This document shows, one piece after another, positions 5,996 to 63,973 of a DNA stretch of 64,000 bases. The stretch covers positions 32,001 to 96,000 of IMG/VR virus record IMGVR_UViG_3300028833_000073. One strand, written 5' to 3'. Position 1 is the stretch's first letter, and every line of letters starts with the position of its first letter. This stretch comes from a virus (Duplodnaviria > Caudoviricetes). A model generated the notes under the pieces. The model had not been told where the DNA came from. It worked only from the letters and a program-made list of their open reading frames with translations, and made no database searches. The translations under genes were made by a program, and so were the position numbers.

Positions 5996-7207
5996 TTACT
6001 TCATAACCACACTAGAGAAAGGAGTATAACCAAGACTAGCAGATTCTGCTAACTGTGCTACACTCTCATTCTTAGGCTTATGAGCCACATAGGCAATGAT
6101 AATTGCCTTATTCTGTCTAGACCTTTCTTTAAGAGCATTAAGACATGCTCCTTCAATAGTTAGTACACATGTTTTAGTATCTTTAATTGCTCGCATATTA
6201 AGGCTTAATGTTTTTGCAGCTCTATCACTTTGTTCCTTTCCAGTTGCATTAATAATAGATTTTTGTGCATTTCCATCTTTATCATAACGAGTAATGGTAG
6301 CAGATGATGATTTTGCATCTTTATCATCTAATGGCTGAGTTTTAAAAAAATCTTTTTGTCTTCTATCTACTTCTTTATCATCTTCATCTATAGATTTCTT
6401 TGCAGCTTTTAACATATCTGTCATTGTTTTCTTTGTTTCTTTTGATGTCATAAGTTCAGTAGCAATACCACTAATACCACCAGGAAAATCTTTTTCATCC
6501 AATTCTTCTTTAGATTCTTCTCCGCTATGATAAGCATTACGAAGTTCTTTAGTAAATTCAGATTGGGTTAAGGAGCTAGATGATTTTCCTGTTAAAGTTG
6601 TTATTACTTTTCCTCTAAACGCATCTGCAAGATCTTCGTATTTATCTTCAGTTTTCTTAAGATCATCTAGTGGTTTGGCAGTAGATCCTGCTAATTCTCT
6701 ATAGTCCATAGATTTAGCAACACAATCTTGAACAGCCTTACTAGTATTATCAAATGCAGACTTACTAAATTTCCATCCTTTAAAGGTGAAGTCAGTTAGA
6801 CTCTTACCACTATAAATTTCTTTCTTATACTTCTGAACAAATTCCTTATCAGTCTTTGTCCAGCTATCAATCTGCATCATAAATCTCTTAAAGAGAACCT
6901 TAATCTTCTCCCAGATCTTCTTAAGAAAGTTCTTGATGGCATTTACCATGTCACCAAGCATTCCTTCATTGTATACCAGGAGTTCACCGGTTCTCTCAAG
7001 ATATGAAGACTCAGCTAAAGCAGTCTGAGTCATAAACATATTGTAGTTCTCTTGCATAGTAATGCAGCAATCAAGAGCGCCTTCCATTAAGTCGTCTCCT
7101 TCATAAGGCTCTACATTACTATCAGTCATAATGGAATCAAGAGTGTCCTCATTAAAAGGTTGTTCTCCATGATATCCATAATGGGCTTCATTAGAAAAGA
7201 TTCCCAT
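5996..7207 (-). CDS. putative internal head/virion protein, paralog family member 1
   Basis: MGIFS; YNE|GMLGDMVNAIKNFLKKIWEKIK; C-terminal KPKNES. Confidence 0.7.
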   Translation of the reverse strand: MGIFSNEAHYGYHGEQPFNEDTLDSIMTDSNVEPYEGDDLMEGALDCCITMQENYNMFMTQTALAESSYLERTGELLVYNEGMLGDMVNAIKNFLKKIWEKIKVLFKRFMMQIDSWTKTDKEFVQKYKKEIYSGKSLTDFTFKGWKFSKSAFDNTSKAVQDCVAKSMDYRELAGSTAKPLDDLKKTEDKYEDLADAFRGKVITTLTGKSSSSLTQSEFTKELRNAYHSGEESKEELDEKDFPGGISGIATELMTSKETKKTMTDMLKAAKKSIDEDDKEVDRRQKDFFKTQPLDDKDAKSSSATITRYDKDGNAQKSIINATGKEQSDRAAKTLSLNMRAIKDTKTCVLTIEGACLNALKERSRQNKAIIIAYVAHKPKNESVAQLAESASLGYTPFSSVVMK

Positions 7208-11641: not shown

Positions 11642-11657
11642 ACATATTATAATTGTG
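11642..11657 (+). promoter_or_regulatory. early promoter A(C/T)ATATTAT-N6-G
   Basis: ACATATTATaattgtG followed by the shared leader ccgtatag and a GAAAGGA RBS. Confidence 0.7.
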
Positions 11658-11694
11658 CCGTATAGTTAATAATGTTTTAGAAAGGATGATTCTT

Positions 11695-12141
11695 ATGAAG
11701 GTAACAAACAATGACAATGTTATCACGGTTGTATTTGAGGAGAGTGATATTGTAAAGATCTCAGCATGGATTGGTTATCATAAACGTGCTAGGAACTATG
11801 GTAGTCCAGAGGCTAAGAAAATATATGAAGCAAAGAGAGATCTTATTCTCGGTAAGGGCGAAGGAGATAATGCATTCAATATTATCTTTGATGAATTACT
11901 CTATAAGAATGGAGAGAACAAAGGATTGTTTAAAATGAAAGTAATACTCATTACTGCTAAAGGAGAGGATGCAGACGCTGCTCTTAAGAGTAGCTTTAAT
12001 GTTGATACTGTCACCAAGGAAGATAGGAAAGGAGTTATTCATGATTTGATTAAGAAATCAATAGAAGTATCTGAAACTAATGACAAGGCTTTCTATGATA
12101 AAGTAAAAGCAAGAGGATATGAACTGAAGTTTGAGATCTGA
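11695..12141 (+). CDS. early hypothetical protein
   Basis: ORF track entry; start moved to ATG 11695 after the RBS. Confidence 0.75.
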   Translation: MKVTNNDNVITVVFEESDIVKISAWIGYHKRARNYGSPEAKKIYEAKRDLILGKGEGDNAFNIIFDELLYKNGENKGLFKMKVILITAKGEDADAALKSSFNVDTVTKEDRKGVIHDLIKKSIEVSETNDKAFYDKVKARGYELKFEI

Positions 12142-12163
12142 TCACTAATCGGTAAGTAGGATT

Positions 12164-12189
12164 TAGAGTACCCATCTAGGGTACTCTAT
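12164..12189 (+). terminator. GAGTACC/GGTACTC-stem terminator
   Basis: tagagtaccc-atctag-gggtactcta followed by a T-rich tract. Confidence 0.7.
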
Positions 12190-12225
12190 TTCTTCCTATC
12201 TATAGTAGAAATGAGGTAATATTCA

Positions 12226-12861
12226 ATGAGAGATACAAATACTATAAAAAGATTCAAAGACTATGATTTGTTTGTTGAAGAATGTAATGAGCTTAAAGAT
12301 TTTGTTATTGATTACATGGGAAGAGATAAATATGGATCAGTAAATATAAAGATGATTAAAGCATTTTCTTCTTTTGAAAAATCTACACTATTTGGTAGAT
12401 ACTATCGACCAACTGATACGATTGCTATATATCTGTATAATATACGCAACCGTACAGAAATGCATCAACATGCTAAGTTATTAGCAATAACAGTGATAAT
12501 ACATGAACTAGTTCATTCTAATAGATGTGCAGATACTAAGAATGATATTATCTTTAATGCACACAAAAACTATAAGAATGCAATGGAATTAGATTGCAGA
12601 CTACAAACCATGAGAATATTTACTGGGATGAAAGACATACTTATCAAAAGGCCATATTTATTTACTGAAAAAGCAATCAATCAGCAGATAATCAATATTA
12701 AGATTGATATTTTAAAGTATTACTGGAATATGATACCAGATGATGAATCCATTGGTATAAAGACCAATGATAAGATACGTGAGAAACTAAATGAGATATC
12801 TGATCTACTAGAACAAGAAGATATCTTTAAAGATGTTCCTGAATTTGGATGGATAAGATAA
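12226..12861 (+). CDS. putative zincin-like (HExxH) metalloprotein
   Basis: FGRYY...IAIYL...TVIIHELVH and a downstream E, typical of SprT/IrrE-like zincins. Confidence 0.5.
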   Translation: MRDTNTIKRFKDYDLFVEECNELKDFVIDYMGRDKYGSVNIKMIKAFSSFEKSTLFGRYYRPTDTIAIYLYNIRNRTEMHQHAKLLAITVIIHELVHSNRCADTKNDIIFNAHKNYKNAMELDCRLQTMRIFTGMKDILIKRPYLFTEKAINQQIINIKIDILKYYWNMIPDDESIGIKTNDKIREKLNEISDLLEQEDIFKDVPEFGWIR

Positions 12862-12920
12862 TAAATTTAGAGTACCCTAAATGGGTACTCTATTTCTTCT
12901 GACCAAATTCAAAAATAGGC

Positions 12921-12936
12921 ATATATTATATATGTG
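12921..12936 (+). promoter_or_regulatory. early promoter
   Basis: ATATATTATatatgtG preceded by ACCAAATTCAAAAATAGGC. Confidence 0.7.
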
Positions 12937-13074
12937 AGCTTAGAGCAATAAGTTTTAAGAAAAGGAGTTGATTTTATAAACAAAGGTAATAGAGATGTTG
13001 ATCAGGTTGTCACTGGTGGACAATACCTTTGTGTAGATTTTTATGACTAATATGACTATAGAATATAAGTATTT

Positions 13075-13360
13075 CATTCACCTGAAGCGAAGTTCCGAGA
13101 GTCGATCCTGGCGCAAGACATTGTGGGGGCGCCTAGTCTTAGAGCATGGTTAGCTCTATGCGCGTAGATAGTAGTGGAAGGAAAGTTTCTGCCGCGCACG
13201 AATAAGGACGTAATAAATCCCTGGAACGCTGAATCGTATTGGTGATCGGAGGTGGATTAATAATTGAAGATAGTATCAGATTCTCCGCCGAATATGGATC
13301 TATTTGGTCCAGGCGTAAAATTAGAATTGTAGCGAAAGTTACTTACGCCAAATATCCTGA
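13075..13360 (+). ncRNA. candidate structured ncRNA of unknown family
   Basis: GC-rich and lacks a long plus-strand ORF; lies between an early promoter and a terminator; several stems with G-U pairs, a GAAA tetraloop and a possible pseudoknot. Confidence 0.5.
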
Positions 13361-13379
13361 AGAAATACTTGAATTGATT

Positions 13380-13410
13380 AGAGTACCTTTTGGGTACTCT
13401 TTTCTTTTTT
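13380..13410 (+). terminator. GAGTACC/GGTACTC-stem terminator
   Basis: agagtacc-ttttg-ggtactct plus T-tract. Confidence 0.75.
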
Positions 13411-13433
13411 CCTGAGTAAACAAAATCTTGGAG

Positions 13434-13449
13434 ATATATTATATATGGG
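13434..13449 (+). promoter_or_regulatory. early promoter
   Basis: ATATATTATatatggG. Confidence 0.6.
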
Positions 13450-13542
13450 AAGGAAGAGAGAGATATGTTTTGAATCATTTAACCTCCAACTAATAGATTT
13501 AGCTAAGACTAAATAACAAATAGAAAGGAAAGATGATTCAAG

Positions 13543-13914
13543 ATGTCTAGAAGAAAGAATTACTCTATTCCTGATTGTCCTAAAATTGGAAGGTATGATG
13601 GTCTTGGAATGGCCGCTGTGCCATTAGCAATAGCAGATAAGGAGAGAGAGTTAGGTATTAGTCATAGTAGTTCTTCTTCATATGACTATGGCTATGATGA
13701 TTATAGTTATGAAGAGGACGAAAAAGAGCTTGAAAAAGAATATGATGATATATATAATCGGGGAAAGAAACGTGGGTTTGAAGAAGGCTATCTTAAAGGA
13801 AGATTAGAAGTCTTGGTTGATTTTCTTGATAAAGATATTGATTATATACAAGATAAGATCAATGAAGATATATATATACTTGCATTCGGTAAAGATGCCA
13901 TAAACCATATTTAA
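13543..13914 (+). CDS. early hypothetical protein
   Basis: GAAAGGA RBS; acidic middle; GxxxG-periodic helix. Confidence 0.7.
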   Translation: MSRRKNYSIPDCPKIGRYDGLGMAAVPLAIADKERELGISHSSSSSYDYGYDDYSYEEDEKELEKEYDDIYNRGKKRGFEEGYLKGRLEVLVDFLDKDIDYIQDKINEDIYILAFGKDAINHI

Positions 13915-53294: not shown

Positions 53295-53313
53295 ATGAGT
53301 ATAACATATTAGT

Positions 53314-53540
53314 ATGGTGGAACCAAGTGCCGTAGTGATTGTACACTTTCGCTGGGATACTTTACTTGGAAGGCCATCATACAGATGAGGGAGACAAGAG
53401 GCCGCTTTATAGAGTCGTGAAGCTTGCAAGTGGGAAGACGTGGTACCATCTTTCTTAGGCCTGTAAGGCGGTCTAGTTTCCCGTTTATATCAATTTCTTA
53501 AAACCACGTCAAAATATATCCACTACCAATGGTAGTGGAA
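53314..53540 (+). ncRNA. candidate structured ncRNA A
   Basis: Own late promoter (53303-53314) and terminal hairpin (53520-53538); long G-U-containing stems; 8-bp long-range pairing. Confidence 0.6.
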
Positions 53541-53566
53541 TTCTATTTTCTTCAATACATTATAGT

Positions 53567-53705
53567 ATGACCATGTTCTTTGCTGGTTGCATTCATTGAG
53601 GGAAGGTGCGGATCCCTTAATGGCTTTTTGCTCATTTGAAAACGCTCTTCTTTTTGTTACACGATATTTATTCCTCTCTTAACGGAGAGGGATAAATATT
53701 TTATT
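53567..53705 (+). ncRNA. candidate small ncRNA B
   Basis: TACA-N6-TA promoter at 53556-53567; stem cattgaggga/tcccttaatg; long terminator hairpin; no RBS or meaningful ORF. Confidence 0.45.
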
Positions 53706-53730
53706 TTTTATATAGATACAACATAAAAAT

Positions 53731-53910
53731 ACCAGAAGTCATGACACTCTTTGAGTGTACACGTTTGCTCATGACAGTATGGTTGGTATTTAGGTTATCC
53801 GGACCTAATACTATGCCTGTGAAAGAAAGTTTGTAGATCCTTTCTTTCCTGGAACGCTTCGTTACAACAGAGAAGACTGGAGGGCGTAACCGCCCTCCCT
53901 CTTCGCTGTC
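53731..53910 (+). ncRNA. candidate structured ncRNA C
   Basis: AACA-N6-TA promoter at 53720-53731; chain of hairpins ending in ggagggcg-taac-cgccctcc. Confidence 0.55.
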
Positions 53911-55227: not shown

Positions 55228-55304
55228 TGGCGGCCCGTATTGAATTCGAATCAATGACCTAGGCTTTAGAAGAGCCTTGCTCTATCCAACTGAGCTAACG
55301 GGCC
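55228..55304 (-). tRNA. tRNA-Arg (anticodon UCU) with encoded CCA
   Basis: ggcccgttagctcagttggatagagc-aaggct-cTTCTAA-agcct-aggtcattgattcgaattcaatacgggccgCCA folds as a cloverleaf; late-type promoter at 55315-55326. Confidence 0.93.
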
Positions 55305-60483: not shown

Positions 60484-60562
60484 ACAGCCTAGTAACATAG
60501 AAAATAAGAATGTAGAGCCTTCTATGGCTCTACATTTCTTTTGACCAAATCTAAAAATGGGC

Positions 60563-60578
60563 ATATATTATAGATGTA
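60563..60578 (+). promoter_or_regulatory. early promoter
   Basis: ATATATTATagatgtA with upstream ACCAAATCTAAAAATGGGC. Confidence 0.7.
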
Positions 60579-60604
60579 GCCAAAAGAAGAAAGGATGTGA
60601 TAAA

Positions 60605-61300
60605 GTGGGCATTATAAGAACAGATAGGCCTAAGCCTAGTGAGTACTTCAAAATGCAAAGGGAGTTGAAGAACAATAAGTTTCTGAAAAGATCAGAAAGG
60701 AAGAAAATCATTCGTAAGCTTAATGAGAGGAGGAAGTATTTATCATCCATAGCGGTATGCCAAGTATGGATGTGTGAGCAGGAAGATGATGAAGAAGTAT
60801 ATAAGATTGAGTCTAAAGGAATTACCGAGAAGACTCGTCCTATGCTAGTGTCTATGTGTCATGGAGACAATATTACTGTGTATCCATTGACCACTAGTGA
60901 GAATGCTACTGAGAGGTGTAAGATATACCATAGAATGTGGGATGGATCTGGTATCTGTCTTACAGAACAGCTTAAAGCATTTACAAGAGTTAAGTTCTGG
61001 TTCTATATGAATACAATAGACTTCAGAGAACTAGAAGAGATCAATAATCAATACGCAAAGGAGTTGCTAAAATCAAGAGTACCTACCCTAACGAAGGAAA
61101 CCACCATTCCTTCATATGAGATCAATATGGATAGGAAGCTAGTTACCACTACGGACAAAAGAACTTATTCTCCAGATATCGTTAAATATATCGTAGATAA
61201 CTGGAGTCTATTACCTATGAACAATATCTTGTCGGCATGTAAGGGTTTAAACAGACACGATGTATACAATATTGCTAATGCTAACTTTAGTACAATATAA
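60605..61300 (+). CDS. PemK/MazF-like endoribonuclease-domain protein
   Basis: QVWM...EKTRPMLV...ITVYPLTTS...SGICLTEQLKAF...ELEEIN follows the PemK/MazF pattern; start moved to GTG 60605. Confidence 0.65.
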   Translation: MGIIRTDRPKPSEYFKMQRELKNNKFLKRSERKKIIRKLNERRKYLSSIAVCQVWMCEQEDDEEVYKIESKGITEKTRPMLVSMCHGDNITVYPLTTSENATERCKIYHRMWDGSGICLTEQLKAFTRVKFWFYMNTIDFRELEEINNQYAKELLKSRVPTLTKETTIPSYEINMDRKLVTTTDKRTYSPDIVKYIVDNWSLLPMNNILSACKGLNRHDVYNIANANFSTI

Positions 61301-61314
61301 GGGAGAGATTTATA

Positions 61315-62127
61315 ATGGCATTGAATGAAGATCAAGTGAAATTGATGAATTACTATCAGATGGAAGAGTTTAAGCAGAAGCTGATAGAGGATAATAGGCC
61401 AAAAGATGAGAAGGATATGGTTGATGCATATCTTAGTGACTTCTTGAAGTATGCTAAGAAGTTGGGAGAGAATGTTAAAGAACATCCATATGCAGTAGCA
61501 TACATGTTCTTTAGCAAAGGTTATGATGCTGCTCCTCCAGCCACTAGGGGAATCTGTGATCTTTCCAGGATGACAATGTCTAATATGATTCCATTGGATG
61601 CCCTTCTCACAAGGATTCTCTATGATATGGGAGTCAAGATGGGACTGTACTTTGATATGCTGGAGAGGTATAAGATTGATGAAGAGCTTGATGTTATTAA
61701 GGAGGAAGATGACAAGGATAAGCTCTATGATCTGATCATCGCGTTCTTTAAGAATCATATTGATAAGAACGTGGATTATGAGAAAGAGTTCTGTATGTTG
61801 TTGAATGAGGATTCCATTAATACGCTCAAGAATGCGATTGAGAAGTTTGAGCAGATTATGGGAATCTTTAGGAATAACAACATCGAAAGAGATAGGTTGC
61901 TCTTCAATACGGTGATTGCCAAGACTTATAACTTCGATATGGAATATATGACTTCTGTACAGGCAACAAACCATGCATCCTTTATTGATAGCCTCTATAG
62001 AAATCCAAAGAAGTATATGAAAGATTTGGATACTATTGAGGTAGTCAAGCAGGATGAGCATCACCATAGCCATATTGAGAAGGTGCCTGTATATAGGAAG
62101 GAAAAGGTGAATAACGATGAAGGTTAA
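61315..62127 (+). CDS. early hypothetical protein
   Basis: RBS; helical 270 aa. Confidence 0.7.
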   Translation: MALNEDQVKLMNYYQMEEFKQKLIEDNRPKDEKDMVDAYLSDFLKYAKKLGENVKEHPYAVAYMFFSKGYDAAPPATRGICDLSRMTMSNMIPLDALLTRILYDMGVKMGLYFDMLERYKIDEELDVIKEEDDKDKLYDLIIAFFKNHIDKNVDYEKEFCMLLNEDSINTLKNAIEKFEQIMGIFRNNNIERDRLLFNTVIAKTYNFDMEYMTSVQATNHASFIDSLYRNPKKYMKDLDTIEVVKQDEHHHSHIEKVPVYRKEKVNNDEG

Positions 62128-62302
62128 AGAGGTTGCTGATTCACTCCGTGGTGCATATCTGTATATTGATGAAGACCTGTATCGTACTGTGGATGTTCCT
62201 GAAGATATTGGAAACAAAGAAGTAGACTTTATGTACATTATAACTGACGGGATAATGACTCTTCATGAAGATAGATACCTTGCAGTAATAACCAAGAAGT
62301 AA
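62117..62302 (+). CDS. small hypothetical protein
   Basis: Overlaps the upstream stop; followed by GGGTACC terminator. Confidence 0.6.
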   Translation: MKVKEVADSLRGAYLYIDEDLYRTVDVPEDIGNKEVDFMYIITDGIMTLHEDRYLAVITKK

Positions 62303-62369
62303 AATTTTGGGTACCTTAATGGTACCCTTTTTCTTTTTCTTAAAATAGCCTAGTCAGAACATACTGGTA

Positions 62370-63185
62370 ATGATTAAGAAGGGAGCGATACATATGTCGA
62401 GAGATGTCTTGACAATGAATCATGTCGACCCGATAGATTTCAATGTAATAAGAATTCCATCGCTTCCTGTGTATGATAGAGAAGACTACGACTTCTATGA
62501 TGATAAAGACATAGATAAGTATATAAAGGATGTAGAAAGAGTAGCGAGGAATTCATTTGAGTATCATCGGTTCATTAAGTTCTTACGTACTCGTCTAGAT
62601 ATGAATAAGTGTTCATTCTACGAGAATGTATCTAATAGATTTGGTGATACAGATTGTTTTAAGATAAAGATACATATTCATCATGATCCTTTCACTCTAT
62701 ATGAGATTGCTAAGATAGTATATCTCAAGAGAGCAAAGAGACATGAGAATCTAGATGAACAGTTGACTGCATGTGAAGTGATGCTACTACATTATAACCT
62801 TTTAGTAGGACTCATTCCACTAGCAGAGACTGTACATGAGCTAGTACATAATCAATATCTTTTTGTTCCAACTACTTCAGTTTTTGGCTTCTATAGAGAC
62901 TTCATGGAAATGTATGATGAGTACATAGATCAAGAACTGAAAGATAAGATTGAAAGATTAGAAGAGTTTAGTGCTTTATATGAGGGTGAAGATAAATTCA
63001 TCTTAGATAAGCATTTCCTTTATACTGATCTTTCAGGAACTTATAAACTTCCTAAGTATGAAGATGTTAAAGCTTTTCTTAATGAGCGTATATCTGAGAT
63101 TGATAATGGATTACCATCTCCACACGTGGAACCTAAACCAGTAAAGAAGTTAGTAGATCCACCGTGGAAGATAGTGATAGATTAA
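62370..63185 (+). CDS. late hypothetical protein with HNH-like His motifs
   Basis: KCSF...IHIHH.PFTL...LIPL..TVHELVH; late promoter at 62358-62369; probable start ATG 62394. Confidence 0.5.
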   Translation: MIKKGAIHMSRDVLTMNHVDPIDFNVIRIPSLPVYDREDYDFYDDKDIDKYIKDVERVARNSFEYHRFIKFLRTRLDMNKCSFYENVSNRFGDTDCFKIKIHIHHDPFTLYEIAKIVYLKRAKRHENLDEQLTACEVMLLHYNLLVGLIPLAETVHELVHNQYLFVPTTSVFGFYRDFMEMYDEYIDQELKDKIERLEEFSALYEGEDKFILDKHFLYTDLSGTYKLPKYEDVKAFLNERISEIDNGLPSPHVEPKPVKKLVDPPWKIVID

Positions 63186-63221
63186 GATTAAAATGACATA
63201 AATAGATAGGAGGAAGTAATC

Positions 63222-63584
63222 ATGCAGATTTGTTCTGTTCTTAAGCAGAAGTATGTTGACGGCACTCCAGCCGGTAAGAATTATCTAGTTGCATATTTCC
63301 CTCGTACTAAGGACGAGGTTATTGCAATGATCATGAGGGATAACAAGACTTCTGTATCTAATGTCGTTGCTGTTGATGACGGTAAGGTATGGACGGCTGA
63401 TATGACTAAGGAGTCTGGTGAGAAGTGGAAGCTTACCTTTATTTATCATGAACTCAAGGAGCTTGAAGCCTTCTCCGAGATCAAGAAGCAGATCAAGGGT
63501 CAGATTATCAAGCAGGCTCAGTTCATTGTCAAAACTCCAGTTGAATTCGATGAGATCAATTGGGTAACCAAGTGCTATTTTTGA
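63222..63584 (+). CDS. hypothetical protein
   Basis: AGGAGG RBS; followed by hairpin at 63600-63622. Confidence 0.7.
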   Translation: MQICSVLKQKYVDGTPAGKNYLVAYFPRTKDEVIAMIMRDNKTSVSNVVAVDDGKVWTADMTKESGEKWKLTFIYHELKELEAFSEIKKQIKGQIIKQAQFIVKTPVEFDEINWVTKCYF

Positions 63585-63634
63585 TACATGGTGATACGAG
63601 GGACTACCTTAGGGTAGTCCCTTTTAAATAAGGA

Positions 63635-63973
63635 GTGATAATGATGCTTAATGTTAGAATTAGTTCTACATTGAATATATTAATCAGACATTTTGATCAA
63701 TGTATTAATACTTTGCTATGTAATGTGAATGAAAAGGATAGGAAAACTATCAGAGAGAGTATTGAATTATCTCCATTCTATTCTGTTATGACTGAATTAG
63801 AGAAAGATGGTACTGCTACTGGTATGCTATATGAGTTCAATAATGACATTAAGAAGAAGTATACTAAAGAGATTGAGTTATTTAAGAAGCAGCTTACTAT
63901 GTATCCTAACTATTGGGATAAGATCTATGCTTTAGAAGCAGATGATGATTCTTTGCTTATATCTCTTGTCTAA
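63635..63973 (+). CDS. hypothetical protein
   Basis: AAGGAG RBS. Confidence 0.65.
   Translation: MIMMLNVRISSTLNILIRHFDQCINTLLCNVNEKDRKTIRESIELSPFYSVMTELEKDGTATGMLYEFNNDIKKKYTKEIELFKKQLTMYPNYWDKIYALEADDDSLLISLV

Follow-up and report, generated by a model that had tools for sequence, protein, structure and literature searches.

The segment at 13070-13368 of the window, by which we mean the whole 64,000-nt stretch analyzed here (bases 32001-96000 of a 158-kb IMG/VR virus contig), appears to encode a genuine structured RNA that belongs to no described family and is tied to a freshly deleted gene for an RNase H-like protein. The explanation that we consider probably the best as a whole begins with an ancestral cassette, kept in the relative L012, in which an early promoter and a ribosome-binding site would be followed by a 174-aa RNase H-like gene, an RNA of ∼300 nt, and a terminator. 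It combines the deletion of that gene with the conservation of the RNA fold and with a role of the RNA in trans, which we prefer. The promoter would now drive a transcript of ∼470 nt made up of ∼115 nt of gene debris and then the intact RNA.

The source contig has an estimated completeness of 64% and a GC content of 34%. Its virion proteins matched PHROG structural families, and an 869-aa protein matched proteins of phiR1-37, AR9/PBS1, Staphylococcus LY01, Listeria LPJP1, and Fusobacterium jumbo phages at 23 to 26% identity. Because of these two sets of matches, we place this uncultured jumbo phage, a relative of AR9, PBS1, and phiR1-37, as a distant member of the AR9-like group. Phages of this group carry two multisubunit RNA polymerases. 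The RNA unit follows cassettes of 162 and 211 aa and precedes one of 123 aa; together, these four small early-type cassettes make up an island (11653-13914) between divergent structural-gene blocks. A distant relative, L005, has no such island, and the flanking structural genes abut there. The 211-aa gene directly upstream of the RNA unit (12226-12861, plus strand) has a HELVH motif that resembles a zinc-peptidase motif, and a word-index search of 5.8 billion proteins returned no homologue of its product other than itself. The first-pass annotation of this DNA had remarked on a GC-rich core in the unit, and the region is indeed the second-highest GC peak of the contig (0.55 versus a mean of 0.34). 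The highest peak (0.61; L010:615-1586, contig 136615-137586) comes not from an RNA but from the coding sequence for the C-terminal half of a 323-aa protein, a half rich in Pro, Gln, and Met.

The same annotation had listed a normal early promoter, an AAAGGAG sequence resembling a ribosome-binding site, and a terminator, all of which we found where it had placed them (Table 1). The promoter core ATATTATATATG occurs in 20 copies in the 158-kb contig with at most one mismatch, mostly ahead of genes, and an upstream element of the CCAAA type precedes most of these copies. The early promoter consensus of phage AR9, which is used by the injected virion polymerase, is AAATATATATTAT-N6-G(+1) (PMC5312081). 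The promoter of the unit, ATATATTAT-ATATGT-G, has the AAATATATATTAT element, the spacing of six bases, and the G at +1, and on this match to the AR9 consensus we class it as early, with transcription predicted to start at that G. Hairpins of the GAGTACC..GGTACTC type were observed four times in the window versus 0 expected by chance. The distance from stop codon to terminator is 330 nt here and 303 nt in L012, compared with 6 to 47 nt for other terminators of the same type. On each side, the cargo is bounded by a conserved terminator hairpin with an early promoter directly behind it (12868-12936 and 13380-13447).

Table 1. Features of the RNA unit and its upstream boundary, in window coordinates.
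Feature	Position	Strand	Sequence or basis
Preceding terminator hairpin (211-aa gene cassette)	12868-12892	+	With the next promoter, forms a terminator-plus-early-promoter boundary
Early promoter	12900-12936	+	TGACCAAA (12900-12907), ATATATTAT (12921-12929), six bases ATATGT, predicted start G 12936
Ribosome-binding site and spacer of deleted gene	12961-12972	+	AAAGGAG (12961-12967); alignment with L012
Gene remnant, last 25 codons and TAA stop of RNase H-like gene	12973-13050	+	phmmer match to P0003 C terminus
5' domain of RNA	13070-13250	+	Helix rod ending in a junction
Rod helix P2	13079-13082/13241-13244	+	
Rod helix P2.1	13087-13090/13234-13237	+	
Rod helix P3	13092-13096/13223-13227	+	
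Rod helix P4	13103-13109/13205-13210	+	
Junction helix P5	13110-13114/13129-13133	+	
Junction helix P6	13141-13145/13153-13157	+	
Junction helix P7	13159-13164/13193-13198	+	
P8	13174-13180/13186-13192	+	Loop GAAAG
Hairpin P9	13251-13289	+	GGUGG/CCGCC closing a 29-nt loop
Hairpin P10	13296-13310	+	Hand alignment
Hairpin P11/P12	13312-13349	+	GGCGUAA/UUACGCC, invariant 10-nt bulge AAUUAGAAUU, GUAGC-GAAA-GUUAC
Tentative closing helix P1	13070-13078/13359-13367	+	Least certain; two broken pairs
Intrinsic terminator hairpin and T run	13380-13410	+	AGAGTACC-TTTTG-GGTACTCT, hairpin 13380-13400; near-identical in L012

Stop codons interrupt each of the three plus-strand frames of the unit, as had been noted before. 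We translated frame 2 with an X at each stop and queried it by phmmer against 1.84 billion representative proteins. Residues 4 to 32 aligned with the last 29 residues of P0003 (79% identity; E value, 5.4e-6), a 174-aa protein encoded on a 20-kb Logan contig, L012, the sole relative of the RNA unit that we found. The L012 genes upstream of P0003 are collinear with window positions 60557-63973 (66 to 78% DNA identity), and the RNase H/RNA cassette occupies a different genome position in L012 than here. In L012, the same promoter and ribosome-binding site are followed by the intact gene (6001-6525, with its stop at 6525), the RNA (6540-6817), and the terminator (6829-6849), so that the stop codon and terminator of one transcription unit flank the RNA. 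About 290 nt on the 3' side of the gene are homologous to window positions 13051-13410, terminator included. The L012 sequence AACA-ATAGAA-TA (6528-6539), just past the stop codon, fits the AR9 late-promoter consensus AACA-N6-TA, with a start that would fall one base before P1. The site might serve the RNA of L012 as a second, late promoter or be a chance match, and it is not conserved here, where GACT stands at 13054-13057.

The two phages share GGAGTTGAT (12964-12972), after which the window proceeds directly to codons for FINKGNRDVDQVVTGGQYLCVDFYD and a stop. The deletion here corresponds to about 455 bp of L012, ATG included, reaching from immediately behind the ribosome-binding site up to codon 150, with its junction between 12972 and 12973. 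We found no in-frame ATG, GTG, or TTG start in the remnant. Over its 78 bases, the remnant has 14 differences from L012, 13 of them at third codon positions; 12 of the codon differences are synonymous and 2 are non-synonymous (conservative). This near-exclusive third-position divergence indicates that the gene was under protein-level selection for nearly all of the time that separates the two phages, and thus that the deletion was recent. As an alternative to an RNA, the first-pass annotation had considered a decayed foreign gene. The 5' 115 nt are indeed debris of an RNase H-like gene, but the pattern of divergence from L012 identifies them as the product of a recent deletion rather than of foreign decay. 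Its main proposal, that the unit holds an early noncoding RNA instead of a gene, applies to the GC-rich core and the 3' hairpins, which have the marks of a conserved structured RNA and contain no conserved reading frame; it does not apply to the 5' 115 nt, in which 12973-13050 is the 3' end of the deleted gene.

We call the deleted gene RNase H-like based on the match of P0003 to phrog_531 ("Rnase H"; E value, 5.1e-6). The score of P0003 against Pfam RVT_3 was 17.3 bits, under the cutoff of 21.6, and its motifs FTDGS, TDS, KVKGH, and GNRDVD resemble catalytic ones when compared by eye. P0003 had no PDB sequence match and no relatives in a word-index protein search, and a single-sequence AlphaFold model of it was unusable (pLDDT, 31.5).

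Based on the comparison of the two copies, we describe the RNA at 13070-13368 as a long irregular rod that ends in a junction of three hairpins and is followed by three further hairpins. The comparison comprises two sequences, this phage and L012, too few for an R-scape-type statistical test of covariation, and P5, P6, and P10 were placed by hand to fit the fold. Among the 76 pairs of the hand alignment, 22 differ between the phages: 13 are changed on both sides and still paired, 7 are changed on one side and still paired, and 2, both in P1, are broken. A structure-blind MAFFT alignment that covers 61 of the pairs kept 98.4% of them paired, with 7 two-sided changes, whereas controls in which the partner was shifted by 1 to 3 columns had 42 to 48% of cells paired and zero two-sided changes. 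RNAalifold independently recovered the same helices, with 10 compensated pairs, and favored another short closure over P1. The compensated pairs include three in P8 around the invariant GAAAG loop and two in P12 around the invariant GAAA loop, and the P11/P12 hairpin as a whole has three two-sided changes. P10 differs wholly in sequence in L012, yet a 5-bp hairpin occurs at the equivalent place. The invariant unpaired segments are the 29-nt loop of P9 (about 24 of 29 nt identical in L012, AGAUAGUAUCA included), the segment UAAUAAAUCCCU, the P11/P12 bulge, the GAAAG loop of P8, and the GAAA loop of P12. Read on the opposite strand, the roughly 13 cells that hold a G-U pair (7 here and 6 in L012) would become C-A mismatches, which assigns the fold to the plus-strand transcript. 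Taken together, these patterns argue that selection has maintained the fold on that transcript.

Eight pairings had been proposed earlier from this sequence alone, and seven of them (ggcgc/gcgcc, agagc/gctct, gcgcg/cgcgc, gttcc/ggaac, ggtgg/ccgcc, ggcgtaa/ttacgcc, and gtagc-GAAA-gttac) are kept in L012, most with compensatory changes. The eighth, an H-type pseudoknot between aagac and gtctt, did not survive the comparison. The P5 loop of L012 has only 6 nt (AATTAT), and the sole candidate pairing there, ATTA/TAAT, would have a linker of zero length to span a stem of 5 bp. Likewise, the suggested agcg/cgct extension is better replaced by GCGA/UCGU, which RNAalifold added as a further compensated pair (GUGA/UCAU in L012). 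Beyond the nested helices, we found no conserved pseudoknot or covarying long-range pairing.

It is important to note that the folding energy of the core (13085-13235) is no better than that of dinucleotide shuffles (z = +0.34), although the segment 13235-13352 does stand out (z = −2.4). With single-sequence energies this close to shuffles, the listed helices could have been chance, and the case for the fold rests on the comparison with L012. The energy of the core is thus one argument for reading 13070-13368 as chance helices in GC-rich sequence or as a decayed or frameshifted coding gene; partly protein-like stretches in frames 1 and 2 and a weak phmmer match to a repetitive protein, P0004, are others. 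However, the P0004 match carries little weight, as that protein is internally repeated and low in information and the score was summed over five repeats. In addition, stop codons occur in all frames of the core in both phages, frame-breaking insertions and deletions separate the copies, and the substitutions are compensatory in helices and not spaced every third base. The earlier annotation had named an intact open reading frame (ORF) across the region in a homologue as evidence against an RNA; the L012 gene ends before the RNA, and no frame is open across the core. A search for pseudogene remnants, as it had suggested, recovered the RNase H-like 3' end by phmmer. Across the core, nothing relevant was returned by two large protein searches, one of them a word-index search with a 61-residue frame-1 stretch, or by a tblastn search of phages with the frame-2 read-through. 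We consider the decayed-gene or chance reading of the core largely refuted and can give it hardly any credence.

No Rfam 15 family matched the region at the gathering threshold, the outcome of another check that the annotation had proposed. When the search was relaxed to an E value of ≤10 for both this phage and L012, just terminator-type and AT-rich chance matches appeared, well under the gathering scores of their families. ARAGORN called no tRNA or tmRNA at the unit, its sole call in the window being a tRNA-Arg at 55228-55304. A group I intron (RF00028) would likewise be a GC-rich multi-helix RNA of 250 to 300 nt in an AT-rich phage. We rejected this identification: against a criterion of ≥50 bits, the RNA had no match at an E value of ≤10, and the conserved P4/P7 core sequences of such introns are absent. 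Nor is a host gene interrupted, as the RNA in L012 starts after the gene's own TAA and the P0003 match reaches the C-terminal residue. The contig does have a true group I intron elsewhere (L009:10335-10563, minus strand; contig 126335-126563), which matched RF00028 at 73.3 bits with typical core sequences, so the same search works on this genome. The cores of that intron, AAUUGC..GGAAA, GUUCAACGACUA, and GAUAUAGUCU, do not occur in the RNA, which also has neither a P3-P7 pseudoknot nor flanking exons. We also discarded a resemblance to RNase P, which GAGGAAAGUU in P8 had brought to mind, because no RNase P model matches and the segment is a simple hairpin.

A catalytic RNA of an undescribed class, self-cleaving or other, would be consistent with the compact multi-helix fold, the invariant junction nucleotides, and the two conserved GNRA-like loops. 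We nevertheless judge this very unlikely, given that no ribozyme family matched at an E value of ≤10 and that neither a conserved pseudoknot nor an obvious active-site core was found.

To look for further copies, we built a covariance model, R1, from both RNA copies. R1 found no second copy in the phage's own contig and nothing in LY01, LPJP1, JD-Fnp4, BpSp, or the L005 record. A match in AR9 (20.7 bits) was rejected because it lies inside a coding gene and most helices are missing. Exact-block scans with four blocks returned 0 matches or chance matches within coding regions in IMG/VR, 7 chance matches in JGI metagenomes, and 2 in GTDB genomes, none of which scored when rechecked with R1. The sole blastn match in phage and plasmid collections was a 41-nt chance match. 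By these searches, the RNA family is limited to two sequences so far.

As for function, the RNA may be the functional product of a long 3' untranslated region, stable and acting in trans. It would be bound by a protein early in infection, as a scaffold, sponge, or decoy, and its invariant unpaired segments (the P9 loop with AGAUAGUAUCA, UAAUAAAUCCCU, the bulge AAUUAGAAUU, and the GAAAG and GAAA loops) would be the likely contact points. We found no antisense targets of the conserved loops within the contig. Of the possible roles, we prefer this one in trans, with an RNA that comes from a 3' untranslated region and binds a protein, and we hold it tentatively, with somewhat less than even confidence. 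Because the deletion is recent, the survival of the RNA without its gene is no proof of an independent function, and the RNA could instead act in cis at the 3' end of the RNase H mRNA (on its stability, processing, or translation) and persist here as an orphan relic not yet decayed. In L012, the RNA shares a transcript with the gene and follows its stop codon directly, which fits a cis element, as does the absence of a second copy of the RNA or the gene from the 158-kb contig; the synonymous type of the remnant's divergence, as a sign of recent deletion, does so too. However, 300 nt with ∼13 helices and long invariant loops far exceed what a 3' stabilizer needs, and other cassettes here make do with a terminator hairpin alone. 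Moreover, the deletion took the gene cleanly and left the promoter, the RNA, and the terminator. We regard the cis-acting reading, the chief alternative to a role in trans, as rather unlikely.

The link between the RNA and an RNase H-like gene also brings to mind a replication primer or R-loop RNA like ColE1 RNA II; here, a folded, G-rich early transcript would hybridize to its template and be cut by the RNase H from the adjacent gene. In favor of such a primer, the unit stands out as GC-rich from an AT-rich genome, has a positive GC skew, and adjoins a switch in gene orientation. On the other hand, positive skew is common to all nearby plus-strand genes, a strong terminator ends the transcript, and it is the RNase H-like gene that was lost here and the RNA that was kept. 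The presence of the cassette at different positions in the two phages is also unlikely for an origin, and we consider a primer role highly improbable.

A second ORF-less early unit (unit 2; longest ORF, 31 aa) begins 105 nt past the end of the window (64105-64480 in window numbering; L008:105-480), at the site where L012 has its RNase H cassette. It has the same promoter, the same type of terminator, and a similar leader (TGAGTCTAGAGTGATAA versus TGAGCTTAGAGCAATAA). Unit 2 had no Rfam match, its fold z-score was −0.38, and R1 does not find it. It contains three copies of GAGAUA(G/A)NAUCAA, each in the large loop of a GC-rich hairpin, and 4 of the 6 contig-wide matches to RAGATA[AG]NATCA are in the large loops of GC-rich hairpins in the RNA unit and unit 2. 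The shared motif is a lead and not a test, because it was defined after being seen. The cores of the two units could not otherwise be aligned: global alignment was uninformative, and the local matches were short and differed in order. The two RNAs might form an immediate-early pair whose RAGAUA(G/A)NAUCA loops capture one host or phage RNA-binding protein, an idea that we put forward as doubtful. If it were true, jumbo phages with their own RNA polymerases would have a virus-encoded sponge or decoy RNA whose structural class is new.

Early promoters also share sequence beyond the core. Eight of them contig-wide are followed by the leader TGGTGGTATTGGGTA (e.g., L010:545-575), and its exact complement, CCAATACCACCA, lies beside a 7-bp hairpin that shortly precedes unit 2 (L008:30-70) and also at the corresponding site in L012 (5850-5890).

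CsrB/RsmZ and 6S RNA are protein-sequestering RNAs, and the action proposed here is like theirs, in that a folded RNA shows a short conserved motif in hairpin loops (three times in unit 2). The analogy is one of mechanism only: the RNA lacks both a GGA motif and a central bubble like that of 6S RNA, and it matched no Rfam family. A precedent comes from phiKZ, in which Grad-seq uncovered noncoding RNAs derived from untranslated regions, the 3' species being ∼100 nt long with two stem-loops (PMC8545117). In both cases, a noncoding RNA occupies the interval from the stop codon of a phage gene to the terminator, and the jumbo phage has RNA polymerases of its own. The phiKZ 3' RNA was detected experimentally, whereas the RNA described here, with ∼300 nt and ∼13 helices, is known from comparison with one relative; the two have no sequence relationship, and the RNA here stands without its gene.

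The layout of the island resembles the PeSL cassettes of T4-type phages, in which near-identical terminator hairpins, each with a conserved early promoter directly behind it, enclose single-gene cassettes, and cassette content and position differ between related phages (PMC2839356, PMC4122927). The early promoter is of the sigma-70 type there and of the AR9 virion-polymerase type here, and the cargo here is an RNA. Recombination may take place at these terminator/promoter boundaries. Accessory islands of this kind usually hold host-takeover or counter-defence functions, and AR9 uses the promoter class of the RNA within minutes of infection.

Jumbo phages with their own RNA polymerases have been studied almost wholly through their proteins, with few short RNAs derived from untranslated regions reported (phiKZ). 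To these, the unit adds a large RNA fold that is supported by compensatory changes and has no described family. If further homologues confirm the fold, it would constitute a new RNA family, one that might bind a protein or act as a catalyst early in infection. The two phages also provide a natural experiment, with gene and RNA together in the L012 phage and the RNA alone here.

Two other parts of the window drew our attention. GC-richer, ORF-poor stretches lie at 53303-53910, behind a 2112-aa gene, with GC peaks at 53321-53490 and 53791-53910 and no Rfam match at the gathering threshold. On the minus strand, 22012-43383 is one ORF of 7123 aa.
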